A stretch of 64,000 nt of DNA from Gammaproteobacteria bacterium F7 (GCA_001593685.1 LUKI01000002.1:16077-80076); one strand, 5' to 3'; shown: positions 12,910 to 49,361, counted from the stretch's first letter. Notes: generated by a model from the letters alone, not told the origin. Numbers and translations: made by a program.

Positions 12910-13826
12910 ACTGCTGTCGCACTCAATTTTTCAAAGGTTTCAACCGCTTCATCAAGGTTTGAATAGCTAAAATTATAACAGTCACAAGCCTCAATTAGCT
13001 TAGACATTGTTTCAAAACCTTTCGCGCCCAACAGGCTGTAATTAAATGACTGCTCGCCCGCTTTTAAAAAAGCCGTTTCCTTAATTCGCTCGGTCAAACG
13101 CGTCTCGCCCTCAACGATATATTTGGGGAAAACCATCCAGCCTGGTTTGACCGGCGTATCATCCAATTCAACAGAGCGCGCATCCGGCCTCATGTGCGTC
13201 ACGGTTCCCTTATGAGTATCCTTACAGAGTGGCCCAAACAAAGCCTTATTATCAAATTGCTCAATCACTTTGATCGACTTATTTTTCAGACTAATCGGGC
13301 GGCAAACAGGAATCAGGTGGCTATCGTGTAAAGAAACCAACGCATGCTCATCCGACAACAAACGCCAACCACGTAACATAAGCGCTGCACAAAGTGTGCT
13401 CTTACCAGAGCCAGGCGCTGCCGGCATGACCAATGCTCTACCATTTTTTTCCAAAACAGCAGCATGTAATTTCAAATATTGATTCATATGCACCGAGACA
13501 CACCAATTCATGCCCCACTCTAAAAAAGCAAAAGCCTGACTGATCGGTAACGGTTTGAACGGTGTTTGATGATCGAAATAGAAATCTAATTTGGGTCTAA
13601 ATCGCCGACGCAGACTATTGGGTGAATCAAGACGGATATCAAAATCCACAAATTCCATCTCAGGAAAAAATCGGTTCTGCCCGTAAAGTAGAAATAAGCC
13701 TTCGGCCACTGATCGTACCGACGAGCGAATTCGATAAGTGAAAGGCCCTGTTTTTAAAAACAGTCCAGAACTTTTTAAGAGGGCATGGAGGTGATCAATA
13801 TCGAAATCAGAAATACGAGACGTCAT
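12906..13826 (-). CDS. HprK-related (HPr kinase-like) P-loop kinase
   Basis: LHAAVLEKNGRALVMPAAPGSGKSTLCAALMLRGWRLLSDE matches the HprK C-terminal-domain P-loop plus SDE/D motif seen in 'HprK-related kinase A' and lasso-peptide kinases (from memory). 4-nt overlaps on both sides. Confidence 0.7.
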   Translation of the reverse strand: MTSRISDFDIDHLHALLKSSGLFLKTGPFTYRIRSSVRSVAEGLFLLYGQNRFFPEMEFVDFDIRLDSPNSLRRRFRPKLDFYFDHQTPFKPLPISQAFAFLEWGMNWCVSVHMNQYLKLHAAVLEKNGRALVMPAAPGSGKSTLCAALMLRGWRLLSDEHALVSLHDSHLIPVCRPISLKNKSIKVIEQFDNKALFGPLCKDTHKGTVTHMRPDARSVELDDTPVKPGWMVFPKYIVEGETRLTERIKETAFLKAGEQSFNYSLLGAKGFETMSKLIEACDCYNFSYSNLDEAVETFEKLSATAV

Positions 13827-14095
13827 TGTGCCGCTACGATATCCCGTTTCATTAAACCTGACAACACTTCTTCCATATGGCTTATAAACTCATCATCGAC
13901 TTCGTAATTGAGCTGTTCGGCCACATGCTCGAATAACGGTTGTTTATCTAAAGGCCCTTGTCTGAGTCGCTGCACCAACGGAACTGCCGTTGGACCTAAA
14001 AGTAACGTATCACCAGAAGCAGAATGGAATAATAGCGTTTCATTGCCATAGGATTTTAAAATTAATTCAAAATCTGGGGGGATATACAAAGACAC
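13823..14095 (-). CDS. PqqD-family protein (RiPP-recognition-element-like peptide chaperone)
   Basis: 90 aa. The pattern E.LLFHSASGDTLLLGPTAVPLVQRL followed by an acidic helical C-terminus is the typical PqqD/RRE layout. GTG start without a clear SD, so the start is uncertain. Confidence 0.6.
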   Translation of the reverse strand: MSLYIPPDFELILKSYGNETLLFHSASGDTLLLGPTAVPLVQRLRQGPLDKQPLFEHVAEQLNYEVDDEFISHMEEVLSGLMKRDIVAAQ

Positions 14096-14130
14096 AGGAG
14101 ATAGCCCGTTGTTTGGAATGAATGCGGCAT

Positions 14131-14165
14131 AAAAAAGTCAGGCCCTTAAAACTAAGAGCCTGACT
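14131..14165 (-). terminator. Rho-independent terminator between the Tat-signal protein gene and the PqqD-kinase-NTase operon
   Basis: 8-bp stem AGTCAGGC (14136-14143) / GCCTGACT (14158-14165), plus an inner 4-bp CTTA/TAAG stem and a 4-nt loop. On the minus strand it is followed by T5-6. Confidence 0.75.
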
Positions 14166-14180
14166 AAAACTAACTTGGAA

Positions 14181-14888
14181 TTACTGGTAGAAAATATTGT
14201 TTCTATCAGCGTTTAACGGACAACTACCGCGCTCATTAAGGCCTGCCATTTCTGCATGCCAGTTAGCCAACGGTCCCGAATTATTATTATCATTTTCCCA
14301 CGCTGTATAGGCCGCGCAGTAACCATTAACAATTTGTAGCGGTGTATAAGGTGAGTAATAAACGCCTAAAATATTAGCATTCAGCCATGCTGCAATGGAG
14401 TGTCTCGCTGACTGTTTAAGGAAGGCGGGACCAGCGCCATTGGGAATACAAAGAATATCTTCGAGCATGGTATCCGCACCATCTGGAAATAGTACTCTAT
14501 TGTTATTACCGTAAGACGCAGGACCAGGGCCACAGGAAAATATCTCGCTGAACTTGGACCAGGGCGAGATGCCTGTTCGGCTCGTAATCCACTCCCATGC
14601 ATATCGATCTGATGGCTGACCAGGGCACCAATAACCGGGCGTACAACCAAAGCGACACTCGTCAGGATCAAAATCATGCAGAGACGATCCGGCATCAATG
14701 GAGGCAAGAATAGACCCGGTACAACGGGGGTCATTATAGCCGGAACCCAAGGCTGGTCGGCTCAACAGGGACATCAGCACTGCGCCACCGCCCAGGCCTG
14801 CCTTGGTAAATTTTCGTCGTGACTCAACCGACTTTTCCTCAAGCGGCTGTTTGCTCTCTTCGTTATCTACTTTAGCGTCATCACTCAT
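14181..14888 (-). CDS. Tat-signal, Cys-rich secreted protein of unknown family
   Basis: The twin-arginine motif SRRKFTK is followed by a hydrophobic stretch and ALG|S. There are about 9 Cys in the mature part (CRFGCTPGYWCPG etc.). I recognise no family. Start placed at ATG 14888; the ORF-track start at 14909 is a TTG. Confidence 0.6.
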   Translation of the reverse strand: MSDDAKVDNEESKQPLEEKSVESRRKFTKAGLGGGAVLMSLLSRPALGSGYNDPRCTGSILASIDAGSSLHDFDPDECRFGCTPGYWCPGQPSDRYAWEWITSRTGISPWSKFSEIFSCGPGPASYGNNNRVLFPDGADTMLEDILCIPNGAGPAFLKQSARHSIAAWLNANILGVYYSPYTPLQIVNGYCAAYTAWENDNNNSGPLANWHAEMAGLNERGSCPLNADRNNIFYQ

Positions 14889-15115
14889 AGGGGCTTTCCG
14901 TAAAATCAAATCTATTTGAAATTATAAAGCCAACTTACCTACCGTACAAAATTTTAACGGTAAATAAAGGCTAGCAAATATTTTTCTATATACAGCGCAT
15001 ACTGCAATATTTACACCAATACAAATATGTTGTTTAAATACAATAAGTTAACAATAACGATTTTAACGTGGCTAATACCACTTACTGATAGTGTAAAAAT
15101 ACCCGACATTAAATG

Positions 15116-15898
15116 TTATGGCGATTTAATTTTCTCTAACAGTTTTCTCACATAACGCGACGGAATGGCATAGGTAATTCCACTCGGGTTTTCAATGGCA
15201 GCCTCTTTGGTCCCCTTAACAAACACGCTATTGATAACCCCTACGACCTGTCCACTAACCTGATCATAAAGTGGGCTGCCGCTATTACCTGGGTAAGCTG
15301 TCGCATCCAGCTGAAAAATTTCGTACCCATTTCTCAAACGCTTAATGAGCTCCGGGGTTAACTGTCGAGAACCACCCATGGGGGCCGCTATCGGAGTAAT
15401 ACTGGAAACAATCCCTTGATGTGTTGCTGGATATAAACCAAGGATACCCCCCAAGGGGAACCCTGTAAAAGCATAGCGTTCGCCCTCTCTAACCTGTTCA
15501 GAATCAGCCATTTTCAATGGTGGTAAGCGCGTACCCGAAATACGTAATAACGCGAGATCATGGGCCTCATCCAGCACTAGCACTCGCGCTTGACGAAATT
15601 GGGCGCGTTTGCCTTTACCCGTAAAAATGACTAACACCTCTTTCTGGTCAACAGCCAACTCAACCTTGACCACATGCGCATTGGTAACAACATGATAACC
15701 GTCAGCAACAACAAACCCTGTACCCTGTAGACGAGACTGCGGTGCGCGCGTTGGCTGATAGGTGCCCACCCCAACAACGGAAGGCTTCACCTTAGCAAGC
15801 GTATCAGGCAGGTTATCAGCATAGGCGGTCTGAAATAACGTCAAAACCACCAGGCAGCAGGCACGTATAACAAGACTTTTTCTAGAAAAAGCGGTCAT
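15116..15898 (-). CDS. Trypsin-like serine protease (S1C/DegP-like core, no PDZ domain), secreted
   Basis: Catalytic triad contexts VVTNAHVV (His), HDLALL (Asp) and GNSGSPL (Ser). Signal peptide from M8. Overlaps the dgkA 3' end by 17 nt. Confidence 0.8.
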   Translation of the reverse strand: MTAFSRKSLVIRACCLVVLTLFQTAYADNLPDTLAKVKPSVVGVGTYQPTRAPQSRLQGTGFVVADGYHVVTNAHVVKVELAVDQKEVLVIFTGKGKRAQFRQARVLVLDEAHDLALLRISGTRLPPLKMADSEQVREGERYAFTGFPLGGILGLYPATHQGIVSSITPIAAPMGGSRQLTPELIKRLRNGYEIFQLDATAYPGNSGSPLYDQVSGQVVGVINSVFVKGTKEAAIENPSGITYAIPSRYVRKLLEKIKSP

Positions 15899-16250
15899 AA
15901 ACCACTCCCAACCATACAAAGACCACTAGCATAACACTGACAAAAACGGCCGCTGAGCCCATGTCTTTAGCTCGCCCAGACAATAGATGATATTCATCAC
16001 CGGTCCGGTCAACCACGGCTTCAATAGCTGAATTTAGCAGTTCAACAATCACCACTAAAACACAGACGACAATTAACAATAACGTCTCAAGCAAACTACG
16101 CCCTAACCAAAATGCCAGCGGCAACATGATTAGCAATAAAATAATTTCCTGACGAAATGCCGCTTCACCACGCCATGCAGCCCTGAGCCCGGCTACCGAG
16201 TAACCGTATGCCTTAACAACTCGGTCTAATCCTTTATTTTTCTGTGTCAT
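15882..16250 (-). CDS. dgkA: Diacylglycerol kinase
   Basis: 122 aa with 3 TM helices. The N-terminal amphipathic G..R...A..YS..GL..AW..E.AFRQE and the later NSAIEAVVDR motif are typical DgkA. Confidence 0.88.
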   Translation of the reverse strand: MTQKNKGLDRVVKAYGYSVAGLRAAWRGEAAFRQEIILLLIMLPLAFWLGRSLLETLLLIVVCVLVVIVELLNSAIEAVVDRTGDEYHLLSGRAKDMGSAAVFVSVMLVVFVWLGVVYDRFF

Positions 16251-16331: not shown

Positions 16332-18752
16332 ATGATAAAAAAAGCCCTTAAATATTATCTCATCGGATGCGGTATCGCCCTACACATTGGCGCACTAGCG
16401 GGGCTGTATTATGTGCTTGATCATTTTGCACTCACGCCTCGACAGTTTTTGGTAAAACTCGTTGAAAAATCAGGTCTTGATTCACCGCTGCTCATCTCTG
16501 CTGTTGAACCTGCATCCCGTTATGATGACCACCTATTTGATGGAACTATAAAAACAAGTCATCCGCGGGTACTGCTACCCGAAATTGCCGGCCTTTCGCC
16601 CCAGGACCGCATAAACTTTTTTAAAAACCGCCAATACCTATACCAAAACAGCCCAATCAGCGCGCCCGCCTTACCCTGTAACCAATCAAGTTTGTCGGCC
16701 TTAACAACCTGCTGGCTAACAACGGGCAACCCGGAAAAATTCGATTTAGCCATCAACAAGCTACTAAATTTCAAGGTGGAAACTCCCGACGCCAGTGCTC
16801 GATACGGCAACGCCTGGTTATTGGCCTTTAGCTATGACTTACTCGCAATCAGTCCCAAGCTCACTAACGAGCAACACCAACAAATACAAAATAAACTCGA
16901 AACCGCGCTCATCGAGTATCTGCGGGTACTTGATGAAAACTCGCCCTCACTCTGGCACGGTCGTTTATCCCTCTCGTCCAATGCCTGGCTGGTTGCCACA
17001 ACACTCGAGGCTAACACTGATAAACGCCGTAACCTGGTAACCCGCGCCCAGGGTCACTTCCTTGACTCCGTGCAATCCGTCGCCATTACTGAGGTTTGGC
17101 CAGAGGGCTACAACTACTGGATTAACAACCGAGCCTTTTACTTTGCGCTCGCCGCTTCTGCTTACATAAACGGGCTTGCCAATAGCGAGCATGCGGGTGA
17201 AATAAAACAACTTCTTGAACGCGTCGGACGCTGGCATATCTACGCAACCCGCCCGGACAACAAAATACAGGGCTACGCTGACGAAGGCCCACGCCTTGAT
17301 CTTAAGGACGAAACCCGTCGCGTCATAGACATTATTGCCAGCACAACCGGTGATGAACAATTAGCCAATTACTCCCTCTACCTGCAAAATCTGCACGGGC
17401 GCGAGAGCTACTACAGAGACTTCCGCTGGGGCTTCCACCTATTTAACAACCCGCGACTGCTGTCACCTCTGGCCAAGGGTAATCTTGCCGATTTTTCAAA
17501 TAACCTACCCCAAGCGGCCCTATTTGGTCGCAATGGCAGTAATGCACTTTACCTACGTTCAAGCTGGGATAAGAGTGCCACTCACCTGACCTACCGGGCC
17601 GGTCACAGCTTTACTCACCACGGCCATTATGATGCCGGACACTTCACGCTGTTCAAGGGCCAGCCGCTGGCGGTCAATAGCAGCACCTATGGCGACTATA
17701 CCGGTGAAAACCGATTGAATTACTCCATTCGCACCATTGCTAAAAACGCCCTGTTGATTCAACGTCCTGGCGAAGAGGTCTCACCTAATCGGTTTTTCAA
17801 AGAAAATGTCAGTGATGGTGGACAACGCCTTACGCTGCCAACCGGCAGCGCCCTACAATCCACCCAGCACTGGCAGGAAAATCTTTATAAAAACCAGCAC
17901 CTGGAAGGCGCCGAACTGGAACAGTTCTCTGACAGCGCCAACTACACTTTTATTCAAAGTGACCTGACAGCAGCCTATAACAACAGTAAATACGATGAAA
18001 ATAGTGACGGCGGCAAGGTCAACAAAGTACAACGCTCGCTGTTTTATTTAAAAAACGAAGACATTTTATTAGTCCGCGACCACATAAAAACAAACGATCA
18101 ATCATATCATGCAAAATGGCTTTTGCACTCTCTCAACAAACCTGAGATCAGCTCAGAAAAAGTCCTTAAAGGTCACCGCGATAATGGCATTTTAGCCAGC
18201 ACAAACGGTCAAGCCTTGATCAGGGAAAAACAGAGCCGCCTCTCGGTCGACGCACTATACCCCACCGATGCCAGAATTCACTTAATCGGCGGCCACGCTT
18301 ACCGCTACTACGTTGAAGTGGATGGCGACGACCAAACACTTGATGGGAAAAATATGAGTGCCGGTAGCAATGACGCGGCCTGGTTTGAAAAAGCCAACTG
18401 GCGCATGGAAATTTTTTCACCGACACCAAACACAGAACAGGATTTCCTGGTCGCGCTTGCCCCTTCCATCAATAAGCCTCACCCCATCAAAGCAACGCGC
18501 CTGACGACCTCAGACAACCAGTACGGTGCGCTGTTAGGCAATACAGCCGTGATTTACACTGACTCACGGGGAGAGTTCTCGATTGAACTGCCCGGCAACA
18601 TCAAACACCTTTATCTCATTGGTCCGATTCACCAGCCTCGACATATTTCAACAAATAGCCAGCCCTTACAATCCGTCACACACAAAGACATCATTACCCG
18701 AGTGCTATTACCCGATAACCTCACCAACAAAACCCTGCATATTCAGTTGTAA
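16332..18752 (+). CDS. Membrane-anchored heparinase II/III-family (polysaccharide lyase-like) protein
   Basis: N-terminal TM anchor. HSFTHHGHYDAGHFTLFKGQPLAVNSSTYGDY matches the Hepar_II_III signature (H.H.D.G.F...G......Y). Substrate unknown. Confidence 0.6.
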   Translation: MIKKALKYYLIGCGIALHIGALAGLYYVLDHFALTPRQFLVKLVEKSGLDSPLLISAVEPASRYDDHLFDGTIKTSHPRVLLPEIAGLSPQDRINFFKNRQYLYQNSPISAPALPCNQSSLSALTTCWLTTGNPEKFDLAINKLLNFKVETPDASARYGNAWLLAFSYDLLAISPKLTNEQHQQIQNKLETALIEYLRVLDENSPSLWHGRLSLSSNAWLVATTLEANTDKRRNLVTRAQGHFLDSVQSVAITEVWPEGYNYWINNRAFYFALAASAYINGLANSEHAGEIKQLLERVGRWHIYATRPDNKIQGYADEGPRLDLKDETRRVIDIIASTTGDEQLANYSLYLQNLHGRESYYRDFRWGFHLFNNPRLLSPLAKGNLADFSNNLPQAALFGRNGSNALYLRSSWDKSATHLTYRAGHSFTHHGHYDAGHFTLFKGQPLAVNSSTYGDYTGENRLNYSIRTIAKNALLIQRPGEEVSPNRFFKENVSDGGQRLTLPTGSALQSTQHWQENLYKNQHLEGAELEQFSDSANYTFIQSDLTAAYNNSKYDENSDGGKVNKVQRSLFYLKNEDILLVRDHIKTNDQSYHAKWLLHSLNKPEISSEKVLKGHRDNGILASTNGQALIREKQSRLSVDALYPTDARIHLIGGHAYRYYVEVDGDDQTLDGKNMSAGSNDAAWFEKANWRMEIFSPTPNTEQDFLVALAPSINKPHPIKATRLTTSDNQYGALLGNTAVIYTDSRGEFSIELPGNIKHLYLIGPIHQPRHISTNSQPLQSVTHKDIITRVLLPDNLTNKTLHIQL

Positions 18753-18772: not shown

Positions 18773-20413
18773 ATGACAGCATTCTCAATTTTGCCTCATT
18801 TCAGGATTACAACTTTCTCAATGACGAGTCTTGTTCACAGCGGTATTCAGCAACACGCCACCACTTCGCCACAACGAGTAGCGGTCACATTCAAGAATGA
18901 AACACTGACCTACCAAGCGTTATGGCAACAACTTGAACAGTTTGCTAACGCCATCAAGTCACTCGGCTGCCAACGTGGTGACCGTATTGCCGTATACTTG
19001 CCTAAACAGTTCGAAACCCTCATTACGCTGTTTGGCAGTAGTCTTGCCGACTGTGTCTTTGTGCCAGTCAACCCCGTTTTGAAAGCTAAGCAGGTCGGCC
19101 ATATTCTACGGGACTGTGATGCCAAGCTACTGCTGACTTCCGCAGAACGCGCCAAACAGCTAAGCGATACACTGATCGAATGCCCCAGTCTTGAGCATGT
19201 TGTTTTCAGTAACCAGGCAAAAACCGAATTTGAGCTAGGCGCAATACAAATTCACCACTGGCAGCAGCTGCTGACCAACCACACAGGTTTACCGTTAACA
19301 CAACAAAGCGCGATTGATGCGGATGTCGCCGCCATTCTTTATACCTCAGGCAGTACCGGCAAACCCAAGGGCGTAGTGTTATCACACCGCAATATCGTGG
19401 CTGGCGCGGAAAGTGTGTCCAGCTATCTCAATAACACCCCCGAAGACAAGCTGCTGGCCGTACTACCGCTAAGTTTTGACTATGGTTTCAGCCAGCTCAC
19501 CACCGCTTTTTTAGTGGGCGCTGAAGTCGTGCTTATGGACTACCTGTTACCGCGTGATGTGTTAAAAGCGATTGCCAAACACCAAATTACCGGCTTAGCC
19601 GCCGTACCGCCGCTATGGAAACAATTGGTTAATCTTGAATGGCCAGACGAAGCAAAAGACTGCTTACGCTTCATCACCAACTCTGGCGGTCACATGCCAT
19701 CCAGTATTGTTAGCCACTTACAAAGCACCCTGCCAAATACCGATATTTACTTAATGTACGGCCTGACAGAAGCCTTCCGCTCCACCTACTTGCCACCCGA
19801 CGAAATTGGCCAACGCCCAGGCTCCATTGGCAAAGCTATTCCCAATGCAGAGGTCATGGTGGTGCGCCCTGATGGCTCCGAGTGCGACGCAGAGGAGCCC
19901 GGCGAACTTGTTCACCGTGGCGTGCATGTCGCGCTAGGCTACTGGAACGACCCAGCAAAAACAGCTGAACGTTTTAAGCCAGCGCCCAGCAAACACCGCG
20001 CCCTGCCACTACAGGAAATTGCCGTTTGGTCTGGCGATCAGGTCAAACGAGACAAAGACGGTTATCTGTACTTTATGACCCGCCAGGACGAAATGATCAA
20101 AACCTCTGGCTACCGTGTCAGCCCTGGCGAAGTGGAAGAGGAAATTCAGAGCAGCGGCCTCGTCACTGACTTGGCTGTATTCGGCCTTCCACACCCACTG
20201 CTCGGACAGGGCATCGTCGTTATTGCTGAAAGCAACGGTGAGCCGGACAGCCAGGCACTACAGCGCTATTGCCAAAAAAACTTGCCCAATTTTATGGTGC
20301 CGCATCATATCGAATGGCATGACAGCCTGCCACGCAACCCAAACGGCAAAATTGACCGTAACAGCCTGAAAAATGCATTACCGCAAGATTTATTTGAGGA
20401 TAAAAATTCATGA
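18773..20413 (+). CDS. Acyl-CoA/acyl-carrier ligase (AMP-forming), exosortase A system-associated type
   Basis: Adenylate-forming core motifs YTSGSTGKPKG, GYRVSPGEVE and PRNPNGKIDR. Invariably paired with the next gene in XrtA loci (family recalled as TIGR03098). An alternative start at ATG 18821 (MTSLVHSG...) is possible. Confidence 0.8.
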   Translation: MTAFSILPHFRITTFSMTSLVHSGIQQHATTSPQRVAVTFKNETLTYQALWQQLEQFANAIKSLGCQRGDRIAVYLPKQFETLITLFGSSLADCVFVPVNPVLKAKQVGHILRDCDAKLLLTSAERAKQLSDTLIECPSLEHVVFSNQAKTEFELGAIQIHHWQQLLTNHTGLPLTQQSAIDADVAAILYTSGSTGKPKGVVLSHRNIVAGAESVSSYLNNTPEDKLLAVLPLSFDYGFSQLTTAFLVGAEVVLMDYLLPRDVLKAIAKHQITGLAAVPPLWKQLVNLEWPDEAKDCLRFITNSGGHMPSSIVSHLQSTLPNTDIYLMYGLTEAFRSTYLPPDEIGQRPGSIGKAIPNAEVMVVRPDGSECDAEEPGELVHRGVHVALGYWNDPAKTAERFKPAPSKHRALPLQEIAVWSGDQVKRDKDGYLYFMTRQDEMIKTSGYRVSPGEVEEEIQSSGLVTDLAVFGLPHPLLGQGIVVIAESNGEPDSQALQRYCQKNLPNFMVPHHIEWHDSLPRNPNGKIDRNSLKNALPQDLFEDKNS

Positions 20414-21651
20414 GCACGAACAAACCCACTCCGCAACACGCGCCCATGGATCAATTCCCCATTAAAGACGGCTGTTTGAGCGTCGCTGGCCGCAGCATCC
20501 TAGACATCGCCCAACAAATCGGAAGCACACCCTTTTATGTCTATGACAGCGACCTCATGGAGCAACGCGTTACACAATTACGCAACGCGCTTCCCAAAAA
20601 AATTCACCTGCATTACGCCATGAAAGCCAATCCCATGCCCATTGTTGTCAGCCATATGGCCAACTTTGTTGACGGCCTGGATGTAGCCTCAGGTGGAGAG
20701 CTCGATGTCGCACTGGCCTGCGGTGTAAGCGCCAAAGATATCAGTTTCGCAGGCCCCGGCAAGCAGGACTGGGAACTCGAAGCCGCCATCAAAGCCGGCA
20801 TCACGCTTAACATAGAATCCGAAAATGAACTCAGACGTGCGGCCCGCATCAGCTCGGAATTATGCAAACAGGCCAACATCGCCATTCGTGTCAATCCAGA
20901 TTTTGAATTAAAAGCCTCCGGCATGAAAATGGGCGGAGGCCCCAAGCAGTTTGGCATAGACGCTGAACGTGTACCCGATGTACTCAAAGAAATTGGTGAG
21001 CTAGGCCTGCATTTTCGCGGTTTTCACATCTTCTGCGGTTCGCAAAACTTGAAACCAGAAGCCATCATCGAAGCCCACGACAATACCTTTGAGCTGGCGC
21101 TACGTCTTGCCAAAGACGCGCCCAGTCCAGTCGAGCTGCTCAATATCGGCGGCGGCCTCGGTATCCCCTATTTTCCCGGCGAAACCCGTATCGACCTAGG
21201 CCCCATTGCAGCTAACCTGGAAGCAAAGTTACCCGCTGTTTGTGAAGCGCTACCAGAGGCAGAAATCGTCATGGAGCTGGGCCGCTATCTAGTTGGCGAA
21301 GCCGGCCTTTACGTCAGCAAAGTGATCGACAAAAAAGTATCGCGCGGCCATACCTACCTCATCGTCGATGGCGGGCTACACCACCACCTTTCAGCTTCTG
21401 GAAACTTCGGCCAGGTAATTCGGAAAAACTATCCGGTTGCTATCGCCAATCGTATGGAAAGCACGGAAACCGAAGAGGTCTCTGTAGTTGGCCCGTTATG
21501 CACGCCACTCGATATTCTGGCCAATAACATGACGCTGCCCAAAGCTGATATTGGCGATCTAGTAGCCGTCTACCAATCTGGTGCCTATGGCTACTCCGCC
21601 AGCCCCCATCAGTTTTTGAGTCATCCGGGTGCGAAGGAGTTATTAATATGA
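20410..21651 (+). CDS. PLP-dependent decarboxylase (Orn/DAP/Arg decarboxylase fold III), exosortase A system-associated type
   Basis: YAMKANP (PLP-Lys), GGGLGIPY and the C-terminal CTPLD/GAYG blocks. ATGA overlap with the ligase gene. Family recalled as TIGR03099. Confidence 0.8.
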   Translation: MSTNKPTPQHAPMDQFPIKDGCLSVAGRSILDIAQQIGSTPFYVYDSDLMEQRVTQLRNALPKKIHLHYAMKANPMPIVVSHMANFVDGLDVASGGELDVALACGVSAKDISFAGPGKQDWELEAAIKAGITLNIESENELRRAARISSELCKQANIAIRVNPDFELKASGMKMGGGPKQFGIDAERVPDVLKEIGELGLHFRGFHIFCGSQNLKPEAIIEAHDNTFELALRLAKDAPSPVELLNIGGGLGIPYFPGETRIDLGPIAANLEAKLPAVCEALPEAEIVMELGRYLVGEAGLYVSKVIDKKVSRGHTYLIVDGGLHHHLSASGNFGQVIRKNYPVAIANRMESTETEEVSVVGPLCTPLDILANNMTLPKADIGDLVAVYQSGAYGYSASPHQFLSHPGAKELLI

Positions 21652-21762: not shown

Positions 21763-23130
21763 ATGTGGAACCCCCTGCCTTATCAATGGCCCAGGGTAAG
21801 ATCAAAACATTTCTGTGCCCGGCCATTATTGTTTTTATTGCTATTTCCCGTTGCTTACCTGGTCATAGGTAACACAGCCCCCGTCAACGCGAAACAGTCG
21901 TCAGTAGCACCCGCCTCCCAGCCACTAAACCAATTTTCAGCAAGCAACTTGCCAGCAAAAATACACGGCCAAAACCTCAAACAGTGCCTCACCAAACTAA
22001 ACGCTCAGGGTGCTGGCTGGTGTGAAATTTATCGCAGCAGGCAGCACCCTTCCATCTCTTCTGTGTGGCCAAAAAAACTTGATAAGAAAACAAAAATGAG
22101 GACAGGGCCTGCATCCATATTAATTGCATGGAATGGCGCCGCATTTGATGAAGAGAACAGAGTGCTTTACTTTTTTGGTGGCGGCCACAAAGATTATGGA
22201 GGTAATGAAGTCTACCGTTTTAAGCTTGATAGCGGCGAATGGACGCGTCTGACGGACCCGTCTCCCCTCGACTATTTATACGTCGTAGCCAATTATAATG
22301 CGCGTCCCGACAAGCCTTGGCGGATGCTCTGCTGGATTCCCGATATCGATAAAATACCCGCCAGCACTCACACCTATGATGGCTTTATTTTTAGTCATAA
22401 AACAAAAACCCTATTTCTTTATGCTCAAGGCATCGCAAACGGCTCTTGTTTTGAAGATAAAAATGATACTTACAAAAACACCCCCGGCATTACGAGTTCA
22501 GGATACAGAGCTCTAGGTTGGTATGAATTTAACCCTTCACCAAATTCACTAAACAACGGTTTAGCGCCATTAAGCTGGCGTAAAGTATTTAATTCAGATC
22601 AACTAGAAAAATTTAACATCCATAAAGGTTATCCTGCATCCGTTGAGTTCCAAGATGGAAAAATTGCATTTGGTTCGAAATACCGTACAGCAATATATGA
22701 CCCAACAAACCCAATAATGAGTTCAATAAAACCCTTTACCTACCAAGCAGACTGGGGAGATGGAACTAAAATATATGACCACCAAAGAAAAGTCATCTGG
22801 TCACTACATAAGGATACATTATTAAGCTTTAATGCGATTAATGGCCGTTCAATTTTAAAAATTAAAGCTAACGTAGATCATGGAAAATCATTAGCTATAG
22901 ATAATCGGGGTCGTATTTTATCCTGGAATGGTAAATCCAAAATTTACTCTTTAGCTTCTGACAAAGAAACACCCTATTGGAAGGAGTTTAATTGGGGAGA
23001 AAATGGTCCTCAACTAGGGGATAACAGAGTCTATGGGAAGTGGGTTTATCTTCCAAAGTATGATGTTTTTGTTGGCTTATCAAGTCATAAAACTGGCGTC
23101 TGGGTCTATAAACATTCAGCCCAATGGTAA
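21763..23130 (+). CDS. Hypothetical signal-anchored/secreted protein, possibly beta-propeller (Kelch-like)
   Basis: 455-aa ORF with an N-terminal hydrophobic segment. FFGGGHKDYGGNEVYRFKLDSGEWTRL resembles a Kelch blade. No confident family. First gene of the AT-rich block. Confidence 0.5.
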   Translation: MWNPLPYQWPRVRSKHFCARPLLFLLLFPVAYLVIGNTAPVNAKQSSVAPASQPLNQFSASNLPAKIHGQNLKQCLTKLNAQGAGWCEIYRSRQHPSISSVWPKKLDKKTKMRTGPASILIAWNGAAFDEENRVLYFFGGGHKDYGGNEVYRFKLDSGEWTRLTDPSPLDYLYVVANYNARPDKPWRMLCWIPDIDKIPASTHTYDGFIFSHKTKTLFLYAQGIANGSCFEDKNDTYKNTPGITSSGYRALGWYEFNPSPNSLNNGLAPLSWRKVFNSDQLEKFNIHKGYPASVEFQDGKIAFGSKYRTAIYDPTNPIMSSIKPFTYQADWGDGTKIYDHQRKVIWSLHKDTLLSFNAINGRSILKIKANVDHGKSLAIDNRGRILSWNGKSKIYSLASDKETPYWKEFNWGENGPQLGDNRVYGKWVYLPKYDVFVGLSSHKTGVWVYKHSAQW

Positions 23131-23241
23131 AACAGTTACAGCCCTTGAAAAGCTCTCAGCTAGATTTTTGGGCTATAAACCGTAGCAAACTTGTTACAGT
23201 TACCATCATCCGAACCATTATTCTCTTGCCATTTACTATGG

Positions 23242-24477
23242 CTAATTTGACGTCGCTAACGCAGTAACTAAATCTGCTAATTCTTTGGTAAGCACTTTCC
23301 TATCAAATTGCTTATAGCCTTTGCACTTACTCTGCCAATCCCCTATAGAGATGAACCTAGAGAGAGTTTCTTCAATTCTTATTACATCATCTAATGGGGC
23401 AATAAAATCACCAATATTACAATCCTCAAGAATCTTAGCTGTATCGCTATCCGGGTCAACCCAACCAAGCACTGGCCGCTGCGCATACATATATTCAAAA
23501 ACCTTGGCGGGAATTTGCCAATTACAGGTTTTATCCTGAAATACCATAAGTGCATCGGCGTTAAGCATTTCCAACAAAGCGTCTTCATAGGAAATTGGGG
23601 CAGGAAAACTCACTAAGTCACTAATCCCCAGTTCGGTGACACGCTGACGGTAAAGCGACTCAAAACCGCAAGCGCGCAAGCGAAACTCGTGCAGATCCGC
23701 ACGAAGAACACCCTGTTCTTTAAGATTGCTAATTGCTTTAAAAAAGTTCTCAGGATTACGTTCGTAAACCGGAATAATGCCGCTATGCAGAAATACCTTT
23801 TTTTTATTCCTCTTTGGTACACCAGTTATCACAGGAAAATTATCACTATCAAAGCCATTGGTAATGAGCATACTCTTACCGGCAATTAAACTGGGGTAAC
23901 GGCCACGGTATTTTTCGATAGTGCCAGGCGAAGTAAAAACGATACGGTCTGCAAGGGTTAATAAACGTGCCTCAAACTTTTTTAGCCACTTAAAACGCCT
24001 CGTATCCTGATAGGTTTCCTCTTCCCAGATGGGGTCTCTCAAATCACAAATTAATGGCAACCCAGTTATCTTTTTTAGCCAATAGCCAATCACCAGCGCT
24101 GAAACAATTGGGTAAGTCACCCAAATCACTTCAGCTTTAGTACGCTTTATCAGTCGCAGCCCCTTAAATACGCCGAAAGGAATCCAGCTTGCCCAACGAT
24201 CGGGCGATGCAAGCATTCGTAAATATTTCCCCCGCCACGCAAAGTCACGCGCACCATCTTTAGCCGTACACCGGTAAACCTTTACCTTATCGAGGTCATC
24301 CAGTAACTGATAATTTTTGGCGTTTACCTGTTCGTAAGCATTAGGTTTTACCGTTAAAACCATCGGCTCCACGCCATAACCCGGTAAATATTTAGCAAAC
24401 TTCAAGGTGCGTAAAAATCCGCTACTAGCAGCAACTGGCGGGAAGTGATACGCAATCATTAAAACCTTATGGGGCAT
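23242..24477 (-). CDS. Glycosyltransferase (GT-B, GT4-like)
   Basis: KVLMIAYHFPP N-terminus and a C-terminal E(x7)E-like region (FEYMYAQRPVLG) typical of GT-B sugar transferases. Start placed at ATG 24477; the ORF-track start is TTG. Confidence 0.65.
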   Translation of the reverse strand: MPHKVLMIAYHFPPVAASSGFLRTLKFAKYLPGYGVEPMVLTVKPNAYEQVNAKNYQLLDDLDKVKVYRCTAKDGARDFAWRGKYLRMLASPDRWASWIPFGVFKGLRLIKRTKAEVIWVTYPIVSALVIGYWLKKITGLPLICDLRDPIWEEETYQDTRRFKWLKKFEARLLTLADRIVFTSPGTIEKYRGRYPSLIAGKSMLITNGFDSDNFPVITGVPKRNKKKVFLHSGIIPVYERNPENFFKAISNLKEQGVLRADLHEFRLRACGFESLYRQRVTELGISDLVSFPAPISYEDALLEMLNADALMVFQDKTCNWQIPAKVFEYMYAQRPVLGWVDPDSDTAKILEDCNIGDFIAPLDDVIRIEETLSRFISIGDWQSKCKGYKQFDRKVLTKELADLVTALATSN

Positions 24478-24687
24478 CGATCCATTACCTAAAATCAACA
24501 ATAGCTGAAATGTAGCACATCCTCAGCTGACAAACGCTTCCGTAGTAAATTAAAGAGAAATTCAACAACCCGGTTACATTGAAGTTAATTTATTCAAATA
24601 GCGTGCATAAAGCCCCTAATACTCTAGAATTACTGTCTTACCTGGATCACGAACCCACCGAATTATCGCGATTAAAAGAAAGGAAAA

Positions 24688-25707
24688 ATGGCAGACCAAT
24701 CAGTTCAATGGACAACGCACCCCATTCAAGCATTCGACGAAATTGCGACGCAGTGGCAACAACTCAACCAAAAAACAGCTAACTCGCTATTACTAGACCC
24801 GCGCTTTGTTAAACCGCTAATCAAATACTTTGGTGAGAGTGAAATGCTGATCGCATTAGCTCGTCATCATGAAACGCTGGTTGCTGCCAGCATCCTCACA
24901 AAAGTCGGCTTTGGACAATGGCAAACCTTTCAGCCCTCTCAAGCGCCATTAGGCATGTGGCTCTGCACACCAGATTACTTTCACAATCGATCACTCTATC
25001 AGTCACTGACCCGCTCACTGCCTGGTACGGTGCTAACAATTAGCATCACACAACAGGATCCGAAACTTTTAGCACGCCCAGTTGATGATAAACATTTTTC
25101 TACACTTGATTACATCACAACCGCACGCCTGGACATTCCAGAAGACTTTGAAGCCTACTGGCAATCACGCAGTAAAAACGTACGCACCAGTGTCGGAAAA
25201 GCCAAACGGCGTTTGGAGAAAGAAGGGAAGAAAATCACATTTGACGTTGGGAAAGCGCTAAACAACATTCATGACGATGTAAAAAAATATGGTCAACTAG
25301 AGAGTGACGGTTGGAAAAATAATACAGGCACCGCCGTACATATCGATAATGACCAAGGAAAGTATTACACAGAAATGCTCAGTGCATTTGCTCCAGAACA
25401 GTGTCAAATCTGGCGCTATTATTTCGACTCAGAATTGGTCGCTACTGATCTATGCATCAATGATGACGAGACCATTTTTATTTTAAAAACCACTTATGCA
25501 GAACCCTGGCAACGCTACTCCCCCGCCTTCAGTCTGCATGTTGATGGTATCGAACATTGCTCAAAGATTGGCTTAAAGTCCATCGAGTTCTACGGCCCTT
25601 CGATGCAGTGGCATAAAAAGCTCACCGACGATGAGCGCGTCATGTATCATCTAACCTATTACACCTCGTCATTTGTAAAAACCTTAAAAGAACGACTTAA
25701 GACATAG
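24688..25707 (+). CDS. GNAT-fold acetyltransferase of the CelD/BioF2-like (FemAB-fold related) type
   Basis: 339 aa. The layout and C-terminal ..ILKTTY.E....YSP...L....IE.... resemble Acetyltransf_6 (PF13480) proteins found in polysaccharide loci. Good SD (AAGGAAAA). Confidence 0.55.
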   Translation: MADQSVQWTTHPIQAFDEIATQWQQLNQKTANSLLLDPRFVKPLIKYFGESEMLIALARHHETLVAASILTKVGFGQWQTFQPSQAPLGMWLCTPDYFHNRSLYQSLTRSLPGTVLTISITQQDPKLLARPVDDKHFSTLDYITTARLDIPEDFEAYWQSRSKNVRTSVGKAKRRLEKEGKKITFDVGKALNNIHDDVKKYGQLESDGWKNNTGTAVHIDNDQGKYYTEMLSAFAPEQCQIWRYYFDSELVATDLCINDDETIFILKTTYAEPWQRYSPAFSLHVDGIEHCSKIGLKSIEFYGPSMQWHKKLTDDERVMYHLTYYTSSFVKTLKERLKT

Positions 25708-25756
25708 TGACAGCCAACTTTGTAGCGCAATTTTCTAACTACCTCTTAACGATCAA

Positions 25757-26797
25757 ATGGACATGACTGACAATATAAAAACAAAAAAGAACCGACTTGA
25801 GTCACTTGATTCATTGAGGGGTATCGCGGCACTGGCCGTTGTACTTTTCCATTACACGATCATTGTCCATCGCTTTGTTCCTGACCTTGAAAGCCCTTTC
25901 ACCTTCGAATATGGTCACTATGGCGTAGAACTGTTTTTCATCATCAGCGGATTCGTTATTTTTATGACGATTACACGCTGTAAAACCGGAATGGATTTTA
26001 TTGTTTCGCGTTTCTCCCGCCTCTATCCAGCCTTTTGGCTTTGTGTATCCCTCACCTTCATTTTGGGCATCAGTTATCCCCTACAAGGCCAGAACTATAG
26101 TTTTTCACAATATTTGATCAACCTGAGCATGGCCCAGGAATATTTAAAACAACCTAATATTGATGGTGTTTATTGGAGCCTGACCTACGAGTTAGGTTTC
26201 TATTTTGCGATTTTTTGTATTTATAAACTCAGATTACTTGGCAAGATCGACTACATCTGCCTTGCTTGGGCAGGCTGTGCGATTCTATTCTATTTCTACT
26301 CAGCCTATATCCCTCACCCGCTCCACTATTTGTTACTCATCAATAAATACGCACACCTTTTTGCCGCGGGAATTTGTTTTTACCAAATCCAAAAAAGTGG
26401 CTTCACCCCACTAAGAGTCCTGACCTTATTAGTTGGAATCAGCGCACAGTTTATCGTTGATGACCTGCTTGGCGGCTTTGTTGTGACTGGCTTCTTTTTA
26501 TTATTCTATTTAGCTGTTAACGAACGACTCCCTTTTTTGAAAAACCGAGTGCTCATATTTTTTGGTTCAATTTCGTACCCCCTCTACCTGCTGCATCAGA
26601 TGATTGGTTTTCAGCTAATTGATTACATTTCACACAGCCTAAACTTTACGATGATGCCGGCTATAATTTTTACAACAATTATCGTTGTACTACTTGCCTC
26701 TATCGTTACCTTTGTTTTTGATAAGCCAACAACCAAACTCATACGCGTTCGTTATAAAAACTGGCAGCTCTCTAACATTGAAAAAAGCGCAGGATAA
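25757..26797 (+). CDS. Acyltransferase family 3 (membrane O-acyltransferase)
   Basis: LDSLRGIAALAVVLFH N-terminus and about 10 TM helices, typical of Acyl_transf_3. Confidence 0.8.
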   Translation: MDMTDNIKTKKNRLESLDSLRGIAALAVVLFHYTIIVHRFVPDLESPFTFEYGHYGVELFFIISGFVIFMTITRCKTGMDFIVSRFSRLYPAFWLCVSLTFILGISYPLQGQNYSFSQYLINLSMAQEYLKQPNIDGVYWSLTYELGFYFAIFCIYKLRLLGKIDYICLAWAGCAILFYFYSAYIPHPLHYLLLINKYAHLFAAGICFYQIQKSGFTPLRVLTLLVGISAQFIVDDLLGGFVVTGFFLLFYLAVNERLPFLKNRVLIFFGSISYPLYLLHQMIGFQLIDYISHSLNFTMMPAIIFTTIIVVLLASIVTFVFDKPTTKLIRVRYKNWQLSNIEKSAG

Positions 26798-27025
26798 GCA
26801 AGAATAGCCGGGAAGTGCCTATGTAAGACGGGGCGTCCACAACTGTCCTAAGGTGCTCACACAAAATGCGACATAGTAGACGTCATTCTAGGTCAGGTGA
26901 CAGCGGGACCATCAATATCGTTAGTGGTGTTTCGATTCAGAGCCCAAGTCCTTCAACACCAGCCTAGTACACACTAATTCTTCAATTAGTGACAACAAAC
27001 TTCAGCCATAAAGAGCTACAAAACC

Positions 27026-28213
27026 GTGACAAACTCAACTCCCTGTTATATCTATCTGCTAAACAGTTTCCCGAACCTTTCGGAAACCTTTATTTCCGAT
27101 GAGATTCACTGTTTATTAAAGCAAGGGGTAGCGATCAAAGTATTTAGCTTACACAAGCCCGACCTTAGCACGGTACATCCCAACGCTAAAGAGATCTTGG
27201 AGTCTGGTGTCGTAGAGTATTTAGACCAGCCAACACCACTGAAAAAGCTGTCATCCCTCCTCCGCTTAATACTGATTAACCCTTCACGACTAGTGTCTCT
27301 TTTAAAACTGGATGTCGCGAGTTGGATAAAATTTGAAGCGCTCGGTTACTTAAGTAAGTTAACCTCCACCCACCCAGCCCATATCCATTGCCATTATGCG
27401 GCCCATTCATCGCAAATTGCCCTGGTGGTTAACCACTGCAAAGACATTCCTTTTTCGATAACCACCCACGGCTACGATGTGTTTTTTGAAGCGCCCGACA
27501 ATTACGACGTCCTAGCAAATTACGCGCAAACCATATTTACAATATCTAACTACAACCGTGAATATTTATTGCAGCATTATCAGCTCAATCCAGCCAAGCT
27601 CATGACCCGTTATTGTGGCGTTGACACCGCCAAGTTTAATACTATGGCATTCAAAGAAATTAACTTAAACGAGCCAATCAACATCCTAACCGTCGCTCGT
27701 TTACATCCTGTCAAAGGTCATAAAATCCTGCTAAAGGCCGCTGCTGAATTAAAAACACAATATTCCTGGCAGTTAAATTTTTGGTTTGCAGGCGATGGTC
27801 CACTACGCAATGAGTTGGAAGCATTAGCTAAACAACTGAACCTAACGGAGCACGTGCACTTTCTTGGAAACCAGTCACAGGATCAGGTAAGAGAGCTCAT
27901 CAACAACAGTCATCTGTTTGTACTACCCAGTCTTTCCGAAGGGATTCCTATCTCACTCATGGAGGCGATGGCTGGCAATACACCCGTCATTGGGCCTAAC
28001 ATTAACGGTGTCCCAGAACTCATCCAAAATAAAAAAGAGGGCCTTCTATTTGAGCCCGGTAATGTTGCCAGCTTAACTGATTCAATTTGTGAGATAATCA
28101 AAAATCATAAGCAGCTGAACACGATAACAACAAATGCACGCCTCAAAGTAGAATCAGTTTTTTCTCTAGAAAAAAATACATTGGAAAAGTTTTCCCAGTA
28201 TTCAAACCAATAA
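27026..28213 (+). CDS. Glycosyltransferase family 4 (WcaL-like)
   Basis: N-terminal YLLNSFPNLSETFI motif. The C-terminal PSLSEGIPISLMEAMAGNTPVIG is the GT4 EX7E region. GTG start. Confidence 0.8.
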   Translation: MTNSTPCYIYLLNSFPNLSETFISDEIHCLLKQGVAIKVFSLHKPDLSTVHPNAKEILESGVVEYLDQPTPLKKLSSLLRLILINPSRLVSLLKLDVASWIKFEALGYLSKLTSTHPAHIHCHYAAHSSQIALVVNHCKDIPFSITTHGYDVFFEAPDNYDVLANYAQTIFTISNYNREYLLQHYQLNPAKLMTRYCGVDTAKFNTMAFKEINLNEPINILTVARLHPVKGHKILLKAAAELKTQYSWQLNFWFAGDGPLRNELEALAKQLNLTEHVHFLGNQSQDQVRELINNSHLFVLPSLSEGIPISLMEAMAGNTPVIGPNINGVPELIQNKKEGLLFEPGNVASLTDSICEIIKNHKQLNTITTNARLKVESVFSLEKNTLEKFSQYSNQ

Positions 28214-28241
28214 AAATAACAACCAGAAAGGACTGCTAATC

Positions 28242-29438: not shown

Positions 29439-29504
29439 AGATAGCTATACAGGCATTAAGATACTCTAGCTAGAGTGACTTAATTAAAAATCGAGGGATT
29501 GATC

Positions 29505-30245
29505 ATGCTGAAGAAATCTATCAAAAGCTTTTTGTTATTTTTAACTGCGCCTATAAGATTCGCAGTTCGATATGAACTTTATAATACCGCTTCAGTTCGC
29601 CGCGATGTTAATCAAGCGCTGAGTCAACGTGATATAAACCAGGTTCTCTTAAAGAAAGCTCTGGAAAGTACGGCCGACTATGTTGCAAAAGAAATGGCGC
29701 ATGTCGACTCAGTAACTTCGAAATTTGACTTGCTTACCCTGGCAGTTGATAAGGCCAATCTAGCCAATAAGTTAATCTGTGAATTTGGTGTTTACTCTGG
29801 CCATACAATCAACCACATAGCATCACTGACTGACGAGATAGTTTTCGGCTTTGATTCATTTGAAGGATTACCAGAGCGTTGGCGTGATGGTTTTGAAAAA
29901 GGGCACTTTAAGAAAGACGGTTTACCAAGTACCCGAGAGAATGTAGAACTAATTGTCGGTTGGTTCGATGAAACACTACCTAAATTTATCGAAGAACATC
30001 CAAAGCCGGTTGGTTTTCTTCACATTGATTGTGACCTTTACTCATCAACAAAAACAATTTTTGATCTGCTCACGCCATACATTCAGCCTGGATGCGTCAT
30101 TGTTTTTGATGAGTATTTTAACTACCCCGGATGGGAGGAAGGTGAGTTTAAAGCGCTACACGAATTTTTAAGAAAAACTGGATTAAACTATGACTATTTA
30201 GGTTTTAACCGCCTAAGTGAACAAGTGGCCATCATTATTAAATAG
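29505..30245 (+). CDS. Class I SAM-dependent methyltransferase, TylF/MycF (macrocin O-methyltransferase)-like
   Basis: EFGVYSG, FDSFEGLP and LHIDCDLYSST motifs typical of the TylF family. ATG 29505 lies 6 nt after GAGGGA. Confidence 0.75.
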   Translation: MLKKSIKSFLLFLTAPIRFAVRYELYNTASVRRDVNQALSQRDINQVLLKKALESTADYVAKEMAHVDSVTSKFDLLTLAVDKANLANKLICEFGVYSGHTINHIASLTDEIVFGFDSFEGLPERWRDGFEKGHFKKDGLPSTRENVELIVGWFDETLPKFIEEHPKPVGFLHIDCDLYSSTKTIFDLLTPYIQPGCVIVFDEYFNYPGWEEGEFKALHEFLRKTGLNYDYLGFNRLSEQVAIIIK

Positions 30246-30261
30246 CTACCCCTCTGAAAAC

Positions 30262-33819: not shown

Positions 33820-33826
33820 ACTTGGA

Positions 33827-49358: not shown

Positions 49359-49361
49359 GGG

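Follow-up and report, generated by a model that had tools for sequence, protein, structure and literature searches.

What chemistry is carried out by the adenylate-forming ligase and the pyridoxal 5'-phosphate (PLP)-dependent decarboxylase whose genes adjoin each other in exosortase A (XrtA) loci? We addressed this question computationally for a stretch of 64,000 nt from Gammaproteobacteria bacterium F7 (GCA_001593685.1 LUKI01000002.1:16077-80076), which we call the window. It contains such a gene pair and, at a distance, the genes of a stand-alone acyl carrier protein (ACP) and of two alpha/beta-fold proteins, here called hydrolase 1 and hydrolase 2 (Table 1). With a probability of roughly 55%, ligase, ACP and decarboxylase would form a unit in which an amino acid is decarboxylated while tethered to a carrier protein, and the two hydrolase-like proteins would take part in transfer of the resulting acyl group into exopolysaccharide (EPS) assembly. 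This reading is based on sequence comparison and on analogy to characterised systems.

The open reading frame (ORF) of the ligase at 18773-20413 reaches 770 bits against the NCBIfam model TIGR03098 ('acyl-CoA ligase (AMP-forming), exosortase A system-associated'; cut-off 592) and covers profile positions 1-515 of 517. The decarboxylase scores 621 bits against TIGR03099 ('pyridoxal-dependent decarboxylase, exosortase A system-associated'; cut-off 478). Since the homologues of the ligase are 523-534 aa long and cover 97% of the ORF, translation probably starts at the second Met (18821), from which its residues are numbered below. It is 99% identical to a protein of the gamma proteobacterium IMCC2047. 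As described in an earlier note on this DNA, the motifs YTSGSTGKPKG and PNGKIDR are present in the ligase and AMKANP in the decarboxylase, and the two genes overlap by 4 bp: the stop codon of the first and the start codon of the second share the ATGA at 20410-20413, as read from the sequence. GAGGA is located 9 nt upstream of the decarboxylase ATG. All four families considered here (TIGR03098, TIGR03099 and, for the hydrolases, TIGR03100 and TIGR03101) are represented by ordinary members that exceed the curated cut-offs. The four models have the status 'hypoth_equivalog' and are catalogued without a function, and no published function of the families was found in the literature searched. This agrees with the earlier statement that no substrate or product of the pair has been demonstrated.

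When the decarboxylase was compared with all PDB sequences, the best match was BtrK (2j66/7ru7; 267 bits, 40% identity over 373 aa), annotated in the PDB as 'L-glutamyl-[BtrI acyl-carrier protein] decarboxylase'. It was followed by 6knh, which we take to be SbnH (175 bits, 32% identity), and the diaminopimelate (DAP) decarboxylases reached at most 162 bits. Against the lysA model the protein reaches 262 bits, below the cut-off of 298. The PLP-binding K72 in AMKAN is present in 68/68 family members. Moreover, the family motifs GGLHH(H) and CTPLD match GGMHHH and CTPED of BtrK, that is, the patterns GG(L/M)HHH and C-T-P-x-D; in DAP decarboxylases the corresponding segments read R-P-x-x-Y and C-E-S-G-D. 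In a published phylogeny BtrK, SbnH, AcsE, MccE and FigC group with the DAP decarboxylases, and the clade acts on side-chain-conjugated amino acids (PMC7857480). The motifs and the analogy to BtrK lead us to predict that the window decarboxylase acts on an aminoacyl-S-ACP.

At full length, the ligase matched in the PDB the adenylation (A) domains of nonribosomal peptide synthetases (LgrA module 2, 275 bits), VinN (188 bits), a prolyl-carrier-protein ligase and beta-aminoacyl-ACP synthetases, and fatty acyl-CoA synthetases ranked below these amino-acid-activating enzymes. If the pocket-bearing core (19301-19900) was used alone, VinN became the top match (90.9 bits) and could be aligned without gaps through the beta13-beta14 specificity loop, for which a 2-residue gap was required against both GrsA and LgrA. 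According to PMC11253843, this loop is shorter in VinN-type enzymes than in A domains for alpha-amino acids; the gapless alignment shows that the loop of the window ligase is short as in the VinN type. A mapping of the Stachelhaus code on GrsA with hhalign was discarded, as it was ambiguous at positions 299/301 and 330/331, and the ambiguity was resolved by the VinN alignment.

In this alignment, for which the offset of 16 residues caused by a tag in the PDB sequence of VinN has to be considered, VinN D230 and F231 correspond to D220 and Y221 of the window ligase, N298 and S299 to N287 and S288, and K330 and R331 to F319 and R320. Conservation was counted over 81 TIGR03098 family members: D220, R320 and the catalytic K510 are each found in 81/81, and position 288 is S in 55 and T in 26 (S/T in 81/81). 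The roles of the VinN residues were taken from papers citing the VinN structure work (PMC7756342, PMC11253843 and PMC12186527). According to PMC7756342, D230 binds the alpha-amino group, and S299 and R331 the alpha-carboxyl group, of aspartate-type substrates that are activated at the beta-carboxyl. In AfcQ, the equivalent Arg accounts for activation of L-Asp at its side chain (PMC12186527). The alignment of specificity residues, which the earlier note had proposed, thus gave a divided result: the equivalents of D230, S299 and R331 are in place, but those of K330 (Phe here) and F231 (Tyr or Ala here) differ. By its pocket and by analogy, the ligase is predicted to belong to the VinN/AfcQ type, with activation of Asp (or Glu) at the side-chain carboxyl and loading onto the ACP, and the family name 'acyl-CoA ligase' is probably misleading.

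The putative partner of these two enzymes, the ACP, has its Ser37 in a DSM motif in 37/37 sequences. In the PDB it matched 2lki (69 bits), a 105-aa 'putative uncharacterized protein' with solved structure, which is probably the orthologous ACP of another XrtA organism. A weak match was also obtained to 6cxt, where a carrier chain of 77 aa bears the name 'Alpha/beta hydrolase fold protein'.

The names of the two hydrolases are probably in part misleading. In hydrolase 1 the nucleophile elbow (G-x-C-x-G/A) contains Cys116 instead of Ser in 32/32 sequences, Asp241 is found in 30/32 and His276 in 29/32, and all three residues are invariant in 27 database homologues. An AlphaFold2 model (pLDDT 85) has the canonical alpha/beta hydrolase fold with a lid. 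The corresponding elbow of hydrolase 2 (G-x-R-x-G) has Arg in 29/29 sequences; a conserved His is missing, and F247-W248 occupy its expected site. A literal reading as serine hydrolases (G-x-S-x-G plus His plus acid) is contradicted by the Cys in 32/32 and the Arg in 29/29. From these residues, hydrolase 1 is predicted to be an acyltransferase-like enzyme, either a thioester-accepting acyltransferase or a thioesterase, while hydrolase 2 is probably a non-catalytic partner, for which a 'hydrolase' function is improbable. Inspection of the N-termini revealed no obvious signal peptide in either protein. Their genes are 7 bp apart.

The idea that ligase, decarboxylase and ACP belong together is supported by their occurrence outside exosortase loci. 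On pSymB of S. meliloti SM11, homologues of the ligase (51% identity), the decarboxylase (53%) and the ACP (41%) are encoded by three consecutive genes on the same strand, with the decarboxylase gene between the other two and the ACP gene directly after it. They are followed by genes for a family 2 glycosyltransferase (GT2) and a polysaccharide deacetylase, in a polysaccharide cluster. On the Aureimonas plasmid pAU20a, the pair overlaps and the ACP gene lies 1.9 kb upstream in a Wzx/Wzy-type locus. A search at the replicon level found no exosortase on pSymB or pAU20a. These contexts suggest that ligase, decarboxylase and ACP are a functional unit, and that the label 'exosortase A system-associated' is broader than its name implies.

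Two further observations concern these replicons. In S. meliloti RCAM1750 (L164, 15521-16736) the decarboxylase homologue is split over two frames and has no coding sequence in the incomplete table of PLSDB, while it is intact in SM11 (L165, 7518-8732). Directly upstream of the ligase, S. meliloti and Aureimonas share a protein without Pfam family (L164 13225-13911 and L166 14101-14970; 62% identity). Presumably, a motif in it resembles GNAT acyltransferases, and it may be the transferase where hydrolases 1 and 2 are missing. We rejected the possibility that it is a homologue of the Acetyltransf_6 protein of the window, since the two have no similarity.

How common is the separation of the pair from the other three genes? 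To answer this, GTDB was scanned with the ligase alignment as query, using one genome per species; 80 loci were kept, with flanks of at most 10 kb each, and the window proteins were mapped onto them by tblastn. Ligase and decarboxylase genes adjoin (within 300 bp) in 59 of the 72 loci with enough downstream sequence. A compact trio of the genes for ACP, hydrolase 2 and hydrolase 1, in this order and on one strand, is found in 24/27 loci. The distance between pair and trio varies: of the 41 GTDB loci with full flanks, 6 have a distance below 1 kb, 6 one of 1-3 kb and 10 one of 3-10 kb, and in 19 the partner module was not seen within 10 kb. In a second, independent scan of metagenomes with hydrolase 1 as anchor, the numbers for the same four classes were 1, 6, 3 and 6 (16 full-flank loci). 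Both scans together comprise 57 loci with full 10-kb flanks, with a distance below 1 kb in 7 and of 1-10 kb in 25; in the other 25 the partner module is more than 10 kb away or absent. The relative orientation is also variable, since convergent, divergent and co-directional arrangements all occur, and in 8 loci the ACP gene lies beside the pair without the hydrolase genes. Overall, the pair is kept within polysaccharide loci of alpha-, beta- and gamma-proteobacteria, and the neighbourhoods speak for a functional connection of the five genes.

In the window, the ACP and the two alpha/beta-fold proteins are encoded at 32914-34887 on the opposite strand, 11,263 bp from the decarboxylase stop to the hydrolase 1 stop, in line with the distance of about 11 kb given previously. 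The earlier note had described the five genes as usually adjacent and had suggested that the split may be an insertion or inversion. The comparison of XrtA loci points in the opposite direction: separation of pair and trio is the norm and not a rearrangement. A recent event in this particular genome would be compatible with the AT-rich intervening block and with its differing content among relatives, but it is very unlikely, since separation is the commonest state and the AT-rich stretch includes the trio. Neither a tRNA nor any meaningful repeats, direct or inverted, were found to bound the block, and no transposase was seen among the annotated ORFs of the window. Furthermore, an 84%-identical relative (L081, GCA_942492345.1) shares with the window the genes upstream of the pair, the pair including its 4-bp overlap and three genes downstream of it, but has no trio within 10 kb downstream of the pair. 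Its gene content diverges after window position 25707, where different glycosyltransferases follow, and no close hydrolase 1 from this assembly is among the best matches. The trio side of the block is in turn shared with another locus (L083, hydrolase 1 73% identical), which corresponds to window positions 27026-38950 with the genes for the AsnB-like, TPR and DegT proteins, then ACP, hydrolase 2 and hydrolase 1, then flippase, GT2, methyltransferase and two GT4 enzymes. Between window and L083, hydrolases 1 and 2 are 73-74% identical, which is below the values of their neighbours (ACP 92%, flippase 88%, DegT 87%, GT4 at 28242-29438 91%).

Based on these data, the following pathway can be proposed. 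The ligase would adenylate the side-chain carboxyl of L-aspartate, or less likely of L-glutamate, and transfer it as a thioester to the phosphopantetheine arm of the ACP. The glutamate alternative, which would lead to gamma-aminobutyric acid (GABA), is considered because BtrK, the closest solved relative of the decarboxylase, uses Glu. The BtrK-like PLP enzyme would then decarboxylate the free alpha-amino/alpha-carboxyl end on the carrier, yielding beta-alanyl-S-ACP (or GABA-S-ACP), and possibly an oligo-beta-alanyl chain could be built on the ACP as in the AfcQ/AfcK/AfcP system. In such a scheme the amino acid must be tethered through a carboxyl other than the alpha-carboxyl, and the VinN-like pocket would fit this. 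Hydrolase 1 with its Cys nucleophile, paired with the nucleophile-less hydrolase 2, would take the acyl group from the ACP and deliver it to an acceptor at the cytoplasmic stage of EPS assembly. We infer substrate identity, ACP loading and decarboxylation on the carrier by homology to reconstituted systems; the roles of the hydrolases and the acceptor are conjecture. Most plausibly, the acceptor would be an amino sugar, another amine or a hydroxyl of the repeat unit, and conjectural candidates are amino sugars that the DegT-type enzyme produces or that a deacetylase uncovers. The glutaminase-dead AsnB paralogue might be responsible for an additional amide bond.

An adenylating enzyme, a free-standing carrier protein and a PLP decarboxylase are known to act together in the biosynthesis of butirosin (BtrJ/I/K), fluvirucin (FlvN/L/O) and closthioamide (CtaD/E/F) (PMC11350588), and VinN/VinL/VinO of vicenistatin follow the same three-protein logic (PMC11284099). 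In the bolagladin system (BolO/BolC/BolN), deletion of bolN was not rescued by beta-alanine. AfcQ, AfcK and AfcP of AFC-BC11 alone give (beta-Ala)1-3-S-AfcK in vitro (PMC12186527). AfcQ, AfcP, VinO and BolO were compared with the window proteins by their published description. By this comparison, the AfcQ/AfcK/AfcP system of the Burkholderia lipopeptide AFC-BC11 resembles the window in combining a stand-alone adenylating enzyme of the VinN type, which has the pocket Arg, with a stand-alone carrier protein and a PLP-dependent decarboxylase that converts carrier-bound Asp to beta-Ala. It differs by its secondary-metabolite setting with a fatty acyl-AMP ligase and ketoacyl-ACP synthase III (KAS III)-like enzymes downstream, in contrast to an EPS/XrtA locus with hydrolases 1 and 2. 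The likeness to VinN/VinL/VinO lies in the pocket and the short loop described above, and BolN is BtrK-like by description. In the VinN and BolO systems the downstream enzymes are VinM/VinK/VinJ or a KAS III, and their products serve as starter units of polyketides or lipopeptides and do not decorate glycans.

Butirosin provides the closest solved decarboxylase and, in addition, a precedent for the final step: in the synthesis of its 4-amino-2-hydroxybutyrate (AHBA) side chain, BtrH transfers the ACP-bound acyl group to the amine of a sugar, an outcome which we consider likeliest for the window module, too. The butirosin system differs in its Glu substrate and in a gamma-glutamyl protecting-group step, which is not evident in the window. 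To our knowledge, BtrH is not an alpha/beta hydrolase, and BtrJ is an ATP-grasp ligase, not a member of the ANL superfamily of adenylate-forming enzymes. It is termed an adenylating enzyme in the literature (PMC11350588). A different parallel exists for hydrolase 1. CmaE and SyrC have an alpha/beta fold with Cys in place of Ser at the elbow, and they resemble hydrolase 1 in this respect and in the position of their genes beside that of a carrier protein; the likeness is a presumed functional one. They are aminoacyl-shuttling transferases (PMC8748450). By this analogy, transthioesterification followed by acyl transfer can be conjectured for a Cys-containing alpha/beta-fold enzyme encoded beside a carrier protein. 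Thus, the front-end chemistry would be that of the VinN/AfcQ/BtrK systems, while the EPS context and the downstream alpha/beta-fold pair would be new.

The earlier note had compared the five genes to the Dlt system, in which D-Ala is activated at its alpha-carboxyl, no decarboxylase is involved, and the MBOAT protein DltB and DltD are needed. The general steps of that proposal (adenylation, loading of a carrier, transfer, and a decarboxylation yielding an amine) can be retained, but the combination of VinN/AfcQ, ACP and BtrK/VinO/AfcP is a better fit than Dlt. It is true that an ANL ligase loading a small carrier protein, with the acyl group ending on a cell-surface polymer, corresponds to the DltA/DltC pattern, and the lysA score of the decarboxylase, just below the cut-off, could indicate an enzyme that separately makes a diamine from free DAP, ornithine or lysine while the ligase would attach a usual alpha-amino acid to the ACP by its alpha-carboxyl. 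Nevertheless we consider this unlikely, in view of the VinN-like pocket with its short loop and with an Arg that binds the alpha-carboxyl of the substrate, of BtrK scoring far above the DAP decarboxylases, and of the motif CTPLD in place of C-E-S-G-D. Neither MBOAT (DltB) nor DltD was detected among the NCBIfam and Pfam matches of the annotated window ORFs, and the tight coupling of ligase and decarboxylase would be left unexplained. Alternatively, the amino acid could first be joined by its side chain to a sugar or a lipid-linked intermediate and be decarboxylated after the transfer, as for MccE, SbnH, AcsE and FigC. Several enzymes of the DAP decarboxylase-related clade indeed act on conjugates (PMC7857480), and the second-best solved relative, 6knh, belongs here if it is SbnH. 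This order of events has a similarly low probability in our view: BtrK is closer than 6knh by score and by identity, the S. meliloti decarboxylase gene is located between the ligase and ACP genes, and an ACP thioester is the substrate in the homologous systems that have been reconstituted. Finally, the IMCC2047 orthologue of the ligase is named 'Long-chain-fatty-acid--CoA ligase' in GenBank (EGG99948.1), and generic fatty-acid ligase models match at 200-320 bits. All these matches are far under their cut-offs, while the XrtA-specific models are exceeded. A housekeeping fatty acyl-CoA ligase lying by chance beside a DAP decarboxylase of lysine biosynthesis is effectively refuted by these profile scores, by the amino-acid-adenylating enzymes among the nearest solved relatives and by the invariant Asp220, the equivalent of the amino-group-binding Asp; the conservation of the pair in polysaccharide loci of three proteobacterial classes also speaks against it.

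Several observations weigh against our proposal of a carrier-tethered decarboxylation with transfer into EPS. At the position of VinN K330 the ligase family has Phe (F319) in 81/81 members, and position 221, equivalent to F231, is Y in 58/81 and A in 23/81, so that the substrate could differ from Asp. Identity of the decarboxylase to BtrK is only 40%. Fusions of the ACP to ligase, decarboxylase or hydrolases, which would link them directly, were not seen among the best 150 of 816 matches in a set of 1.84 billion representatives, all 150 being stand-alone proteins of 60-153 aa. The structures nearest to hydrolase 1 are ordinary esterases and lipases, which also sets it apart from CmaE and SyrC. 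Neither hydrolase 1 nor hydrolase 2 was detected in flanks of 6 kb around the SM11 locus or of 14 kb in RCAM1750, and their lack in the S. meliloti and Aureimonas contexts means that they are not obligatory partners of the other three proteins. Likewise, the partner module was not seen within 10 kb in the 25 of 57 full-flank loci mentioned above.

The pair was earlier placed at the head of the XrtA locus. This is true in a loose sense: the gene for XrtA is 32 kb away, and genes without an obvious role in EPS synthesis, among them those for a TonB-dependent receptor and a PQQ (pyrroloquinoline quinone) dehydrogenase, stand between the variable block and the XrtA core, interrupting the EPS region. 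The GC content is 0.51-0.52 across the pair and drops in the block that follows, where the glycosyltransferases are encoded; that such an AT-rich block lies between the pair and its partners could be confirmed, except that the ACP and hydrolase genes are inside the block themselves. The XrtA core comprises, besides exosortase A, the genes for stp1, stp2, stp3, an amidotransferase, FemAB, a deacetylase, WecB, an ATPase, an outer-membrane protein, a tyrosine kinase and a chain-length determinant. Despite this full core, a crude regular-expression scan of the 64 kb revealed no genes for PEP-CTERM-tailed proteins, only spurious antisense ORFs. Scans for promoters, terminators and sigma-54 sites gave no signal over shuffled controls.

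Table 1. Features of the window discussed in the text, with positions counted from its first nucleotide.
Feature	Position	Strand	Basis or remark
NTP_transf_5 protein	11803-12909	-	upstream cluster (11803-15919)
HprK-related kinase A	12906-13826	-	upstream cluster; TIGR04352, 428 bits
90-aa ORF	13823-14095	-	upstream cluster; overlaps start of HprK-related kinase; possibly a PqqD-like partner
Cys-rich protein, 242 aa	14181-14909	-	upstream cluster
Trypsin-like protease	15116-15919	-	upstream cluster
Heparinase II/III-like protein	16332-18752	+	weak HepB match; directly upstream of ligase
Adenylate-forming ligase, TIGR03098 family	18821-20413	+	profile score; ORF opens at 18773 (546 aa)
Fold-III (alanine-racemase fold) PLP decarboxylase, TIGR03099 family	20410-21651	+	profile score; 413 aa
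Kelch-like protein, 455 aa	21763-23130
AT-rich variable block	22000-40000		GC 0.38-0.44 (22 to 40 kb); glycosyltransferases, flippase, modification genes; separates pair from ACP/hydrolase genes and also holds them
FemAB/CelD-like GNAT	24688-25707	+	PF13480 (Acetyltransf_6)
Hydrolase 1, alpha/beta-fold protein	32914-33819	-	TIGR03100, 340 bits (cut-off 168)
Hydrolase 2, alpha/beta-fold protein	33827-34636	-	TIGR03101, 279 bits (cut-off 203)
Stand-alone PP-binding carrier protein (ACP), 79 aa	34648-34887	-	PF00550; alternative TTG start at 34923
DegT/DnrJ/EryC1-type PLP aminotransferase	34984-36237	+	PF01041, 121 bits; divergent from ACP gene
Glutaminase-dead asparagine-synthase (AsnB) paralogue	37127-38950	+	complete Asn_synthase domain; recurrent neighbour of pair and trio
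DNRLRE-domain protein, TonB-dependent receptor, PQQ-dehydrogenase/cytochrome c fusion	39934-45557		no obvious EPS role
XrtA core locus	45576-64000	-
O-antigen-ligase-like protein	45576-46874	-	TIGR03097; core XrtA locus
PaaK/F390-synthetase-like adenylate-forming enzyme	46915-48264	-	DVU_1553-family match, 154 bits
Canonical AsnB	50577-52505		N-terminus M-C-G-I-A-G
Exosortase A with EpsI domain	53754-55301	-	TIGR03109, 337 bits
FemAB of the core	56614-57648		TIGR03019

Some of the neighbouring genes recur in other loci. The AsnB paralogue, which has V-A-S-I-S-G at its N-terminus instead of the M-C-G-I-A-G of the canonical copy, adjoins the pair in 16/80 loci and the trio in 5/80. The DegT-type gene adjoins the pair in 7 loci and the trio in 3, and its arrangement is kept in L083. 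Homologues of the heparinase-like protein are encoded beside the pair or the trio in L009, L026, L037, L044, L081, L095, L110 and L122. The minus-strand cluster of five genes upstream of the pair is also found, as the same set, upstream of the ligase in L081, where in addition the Acetyltransf_6 gene is kept (76% identity) three genes downstream of the pair. The Kelch-like gene corresponds in L081 to two called genes (162 and 278 aa; 13049-14445) and is possibly a pseudogene there. The second adenylate-forming enzyme of the window, which is PaaK-like and adjoins the O-antigen-ligase-like gene, is another possible partner of the ACP.

The founding PEP-CTERM paper does not mention the genes analysed here, and no link of these families, or of exosortase, to BtrK, VinN or beta-alanine was found in the literature searched. 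We may speculate, at long odds, that a beta-alanyl (or oligo-beta-alanyl) arm is placed on an amino sugar of the EPS, perhaps extended by the FemAB-like protein of the locus, and that its free amine serves as the nucleophile in the transpeptidation of PEP-CTERM proteins by exosortase A. Sortases use Lys or pentaglycine as acceptor, and the arm would be the Gram-negative counterpart; another parallel would be the ethanolamine headgroup, made by a decarboxylase, which is the acceptor of archaeosortase. Compatible with this are the far better conservation of the pair than of the glycosyltransferases across XrtA loci and the presence of a sugar deacetylase and a FemAB homologue in the core locus. 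It is weakened by the presence of ligase, decarboxylase and ACP in polysaccharide clusters on the exosortase-free replicons pSymB and pAU20a.

The pair itself is a known marker of XrtA loci, and what is new is a chemical prediction that bears on the attachment target of exosortase. Thousands of genomes from the environment, wastewater flocs and the rhizosphere carry annotations of the four families, under names which say little and are probably in part wrong. A unit of the VinN/AfcQ plus BtrK type leads to a concrete and cheaply testable prediction, the conversion of isoaspartyl-S-ACP to beta-alanyl-S-ACP, and XrtA-type exopolysaccharides would be expected to carry an amide or ester of the beta-alanine or GABA type. 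If it were true that this amine is the attachment point of PEP-CTERM proteins, it would answer the question of what exosortase joins its substrates to, which, as far as the literature searched shows, has been open since the description of the system in 2006.

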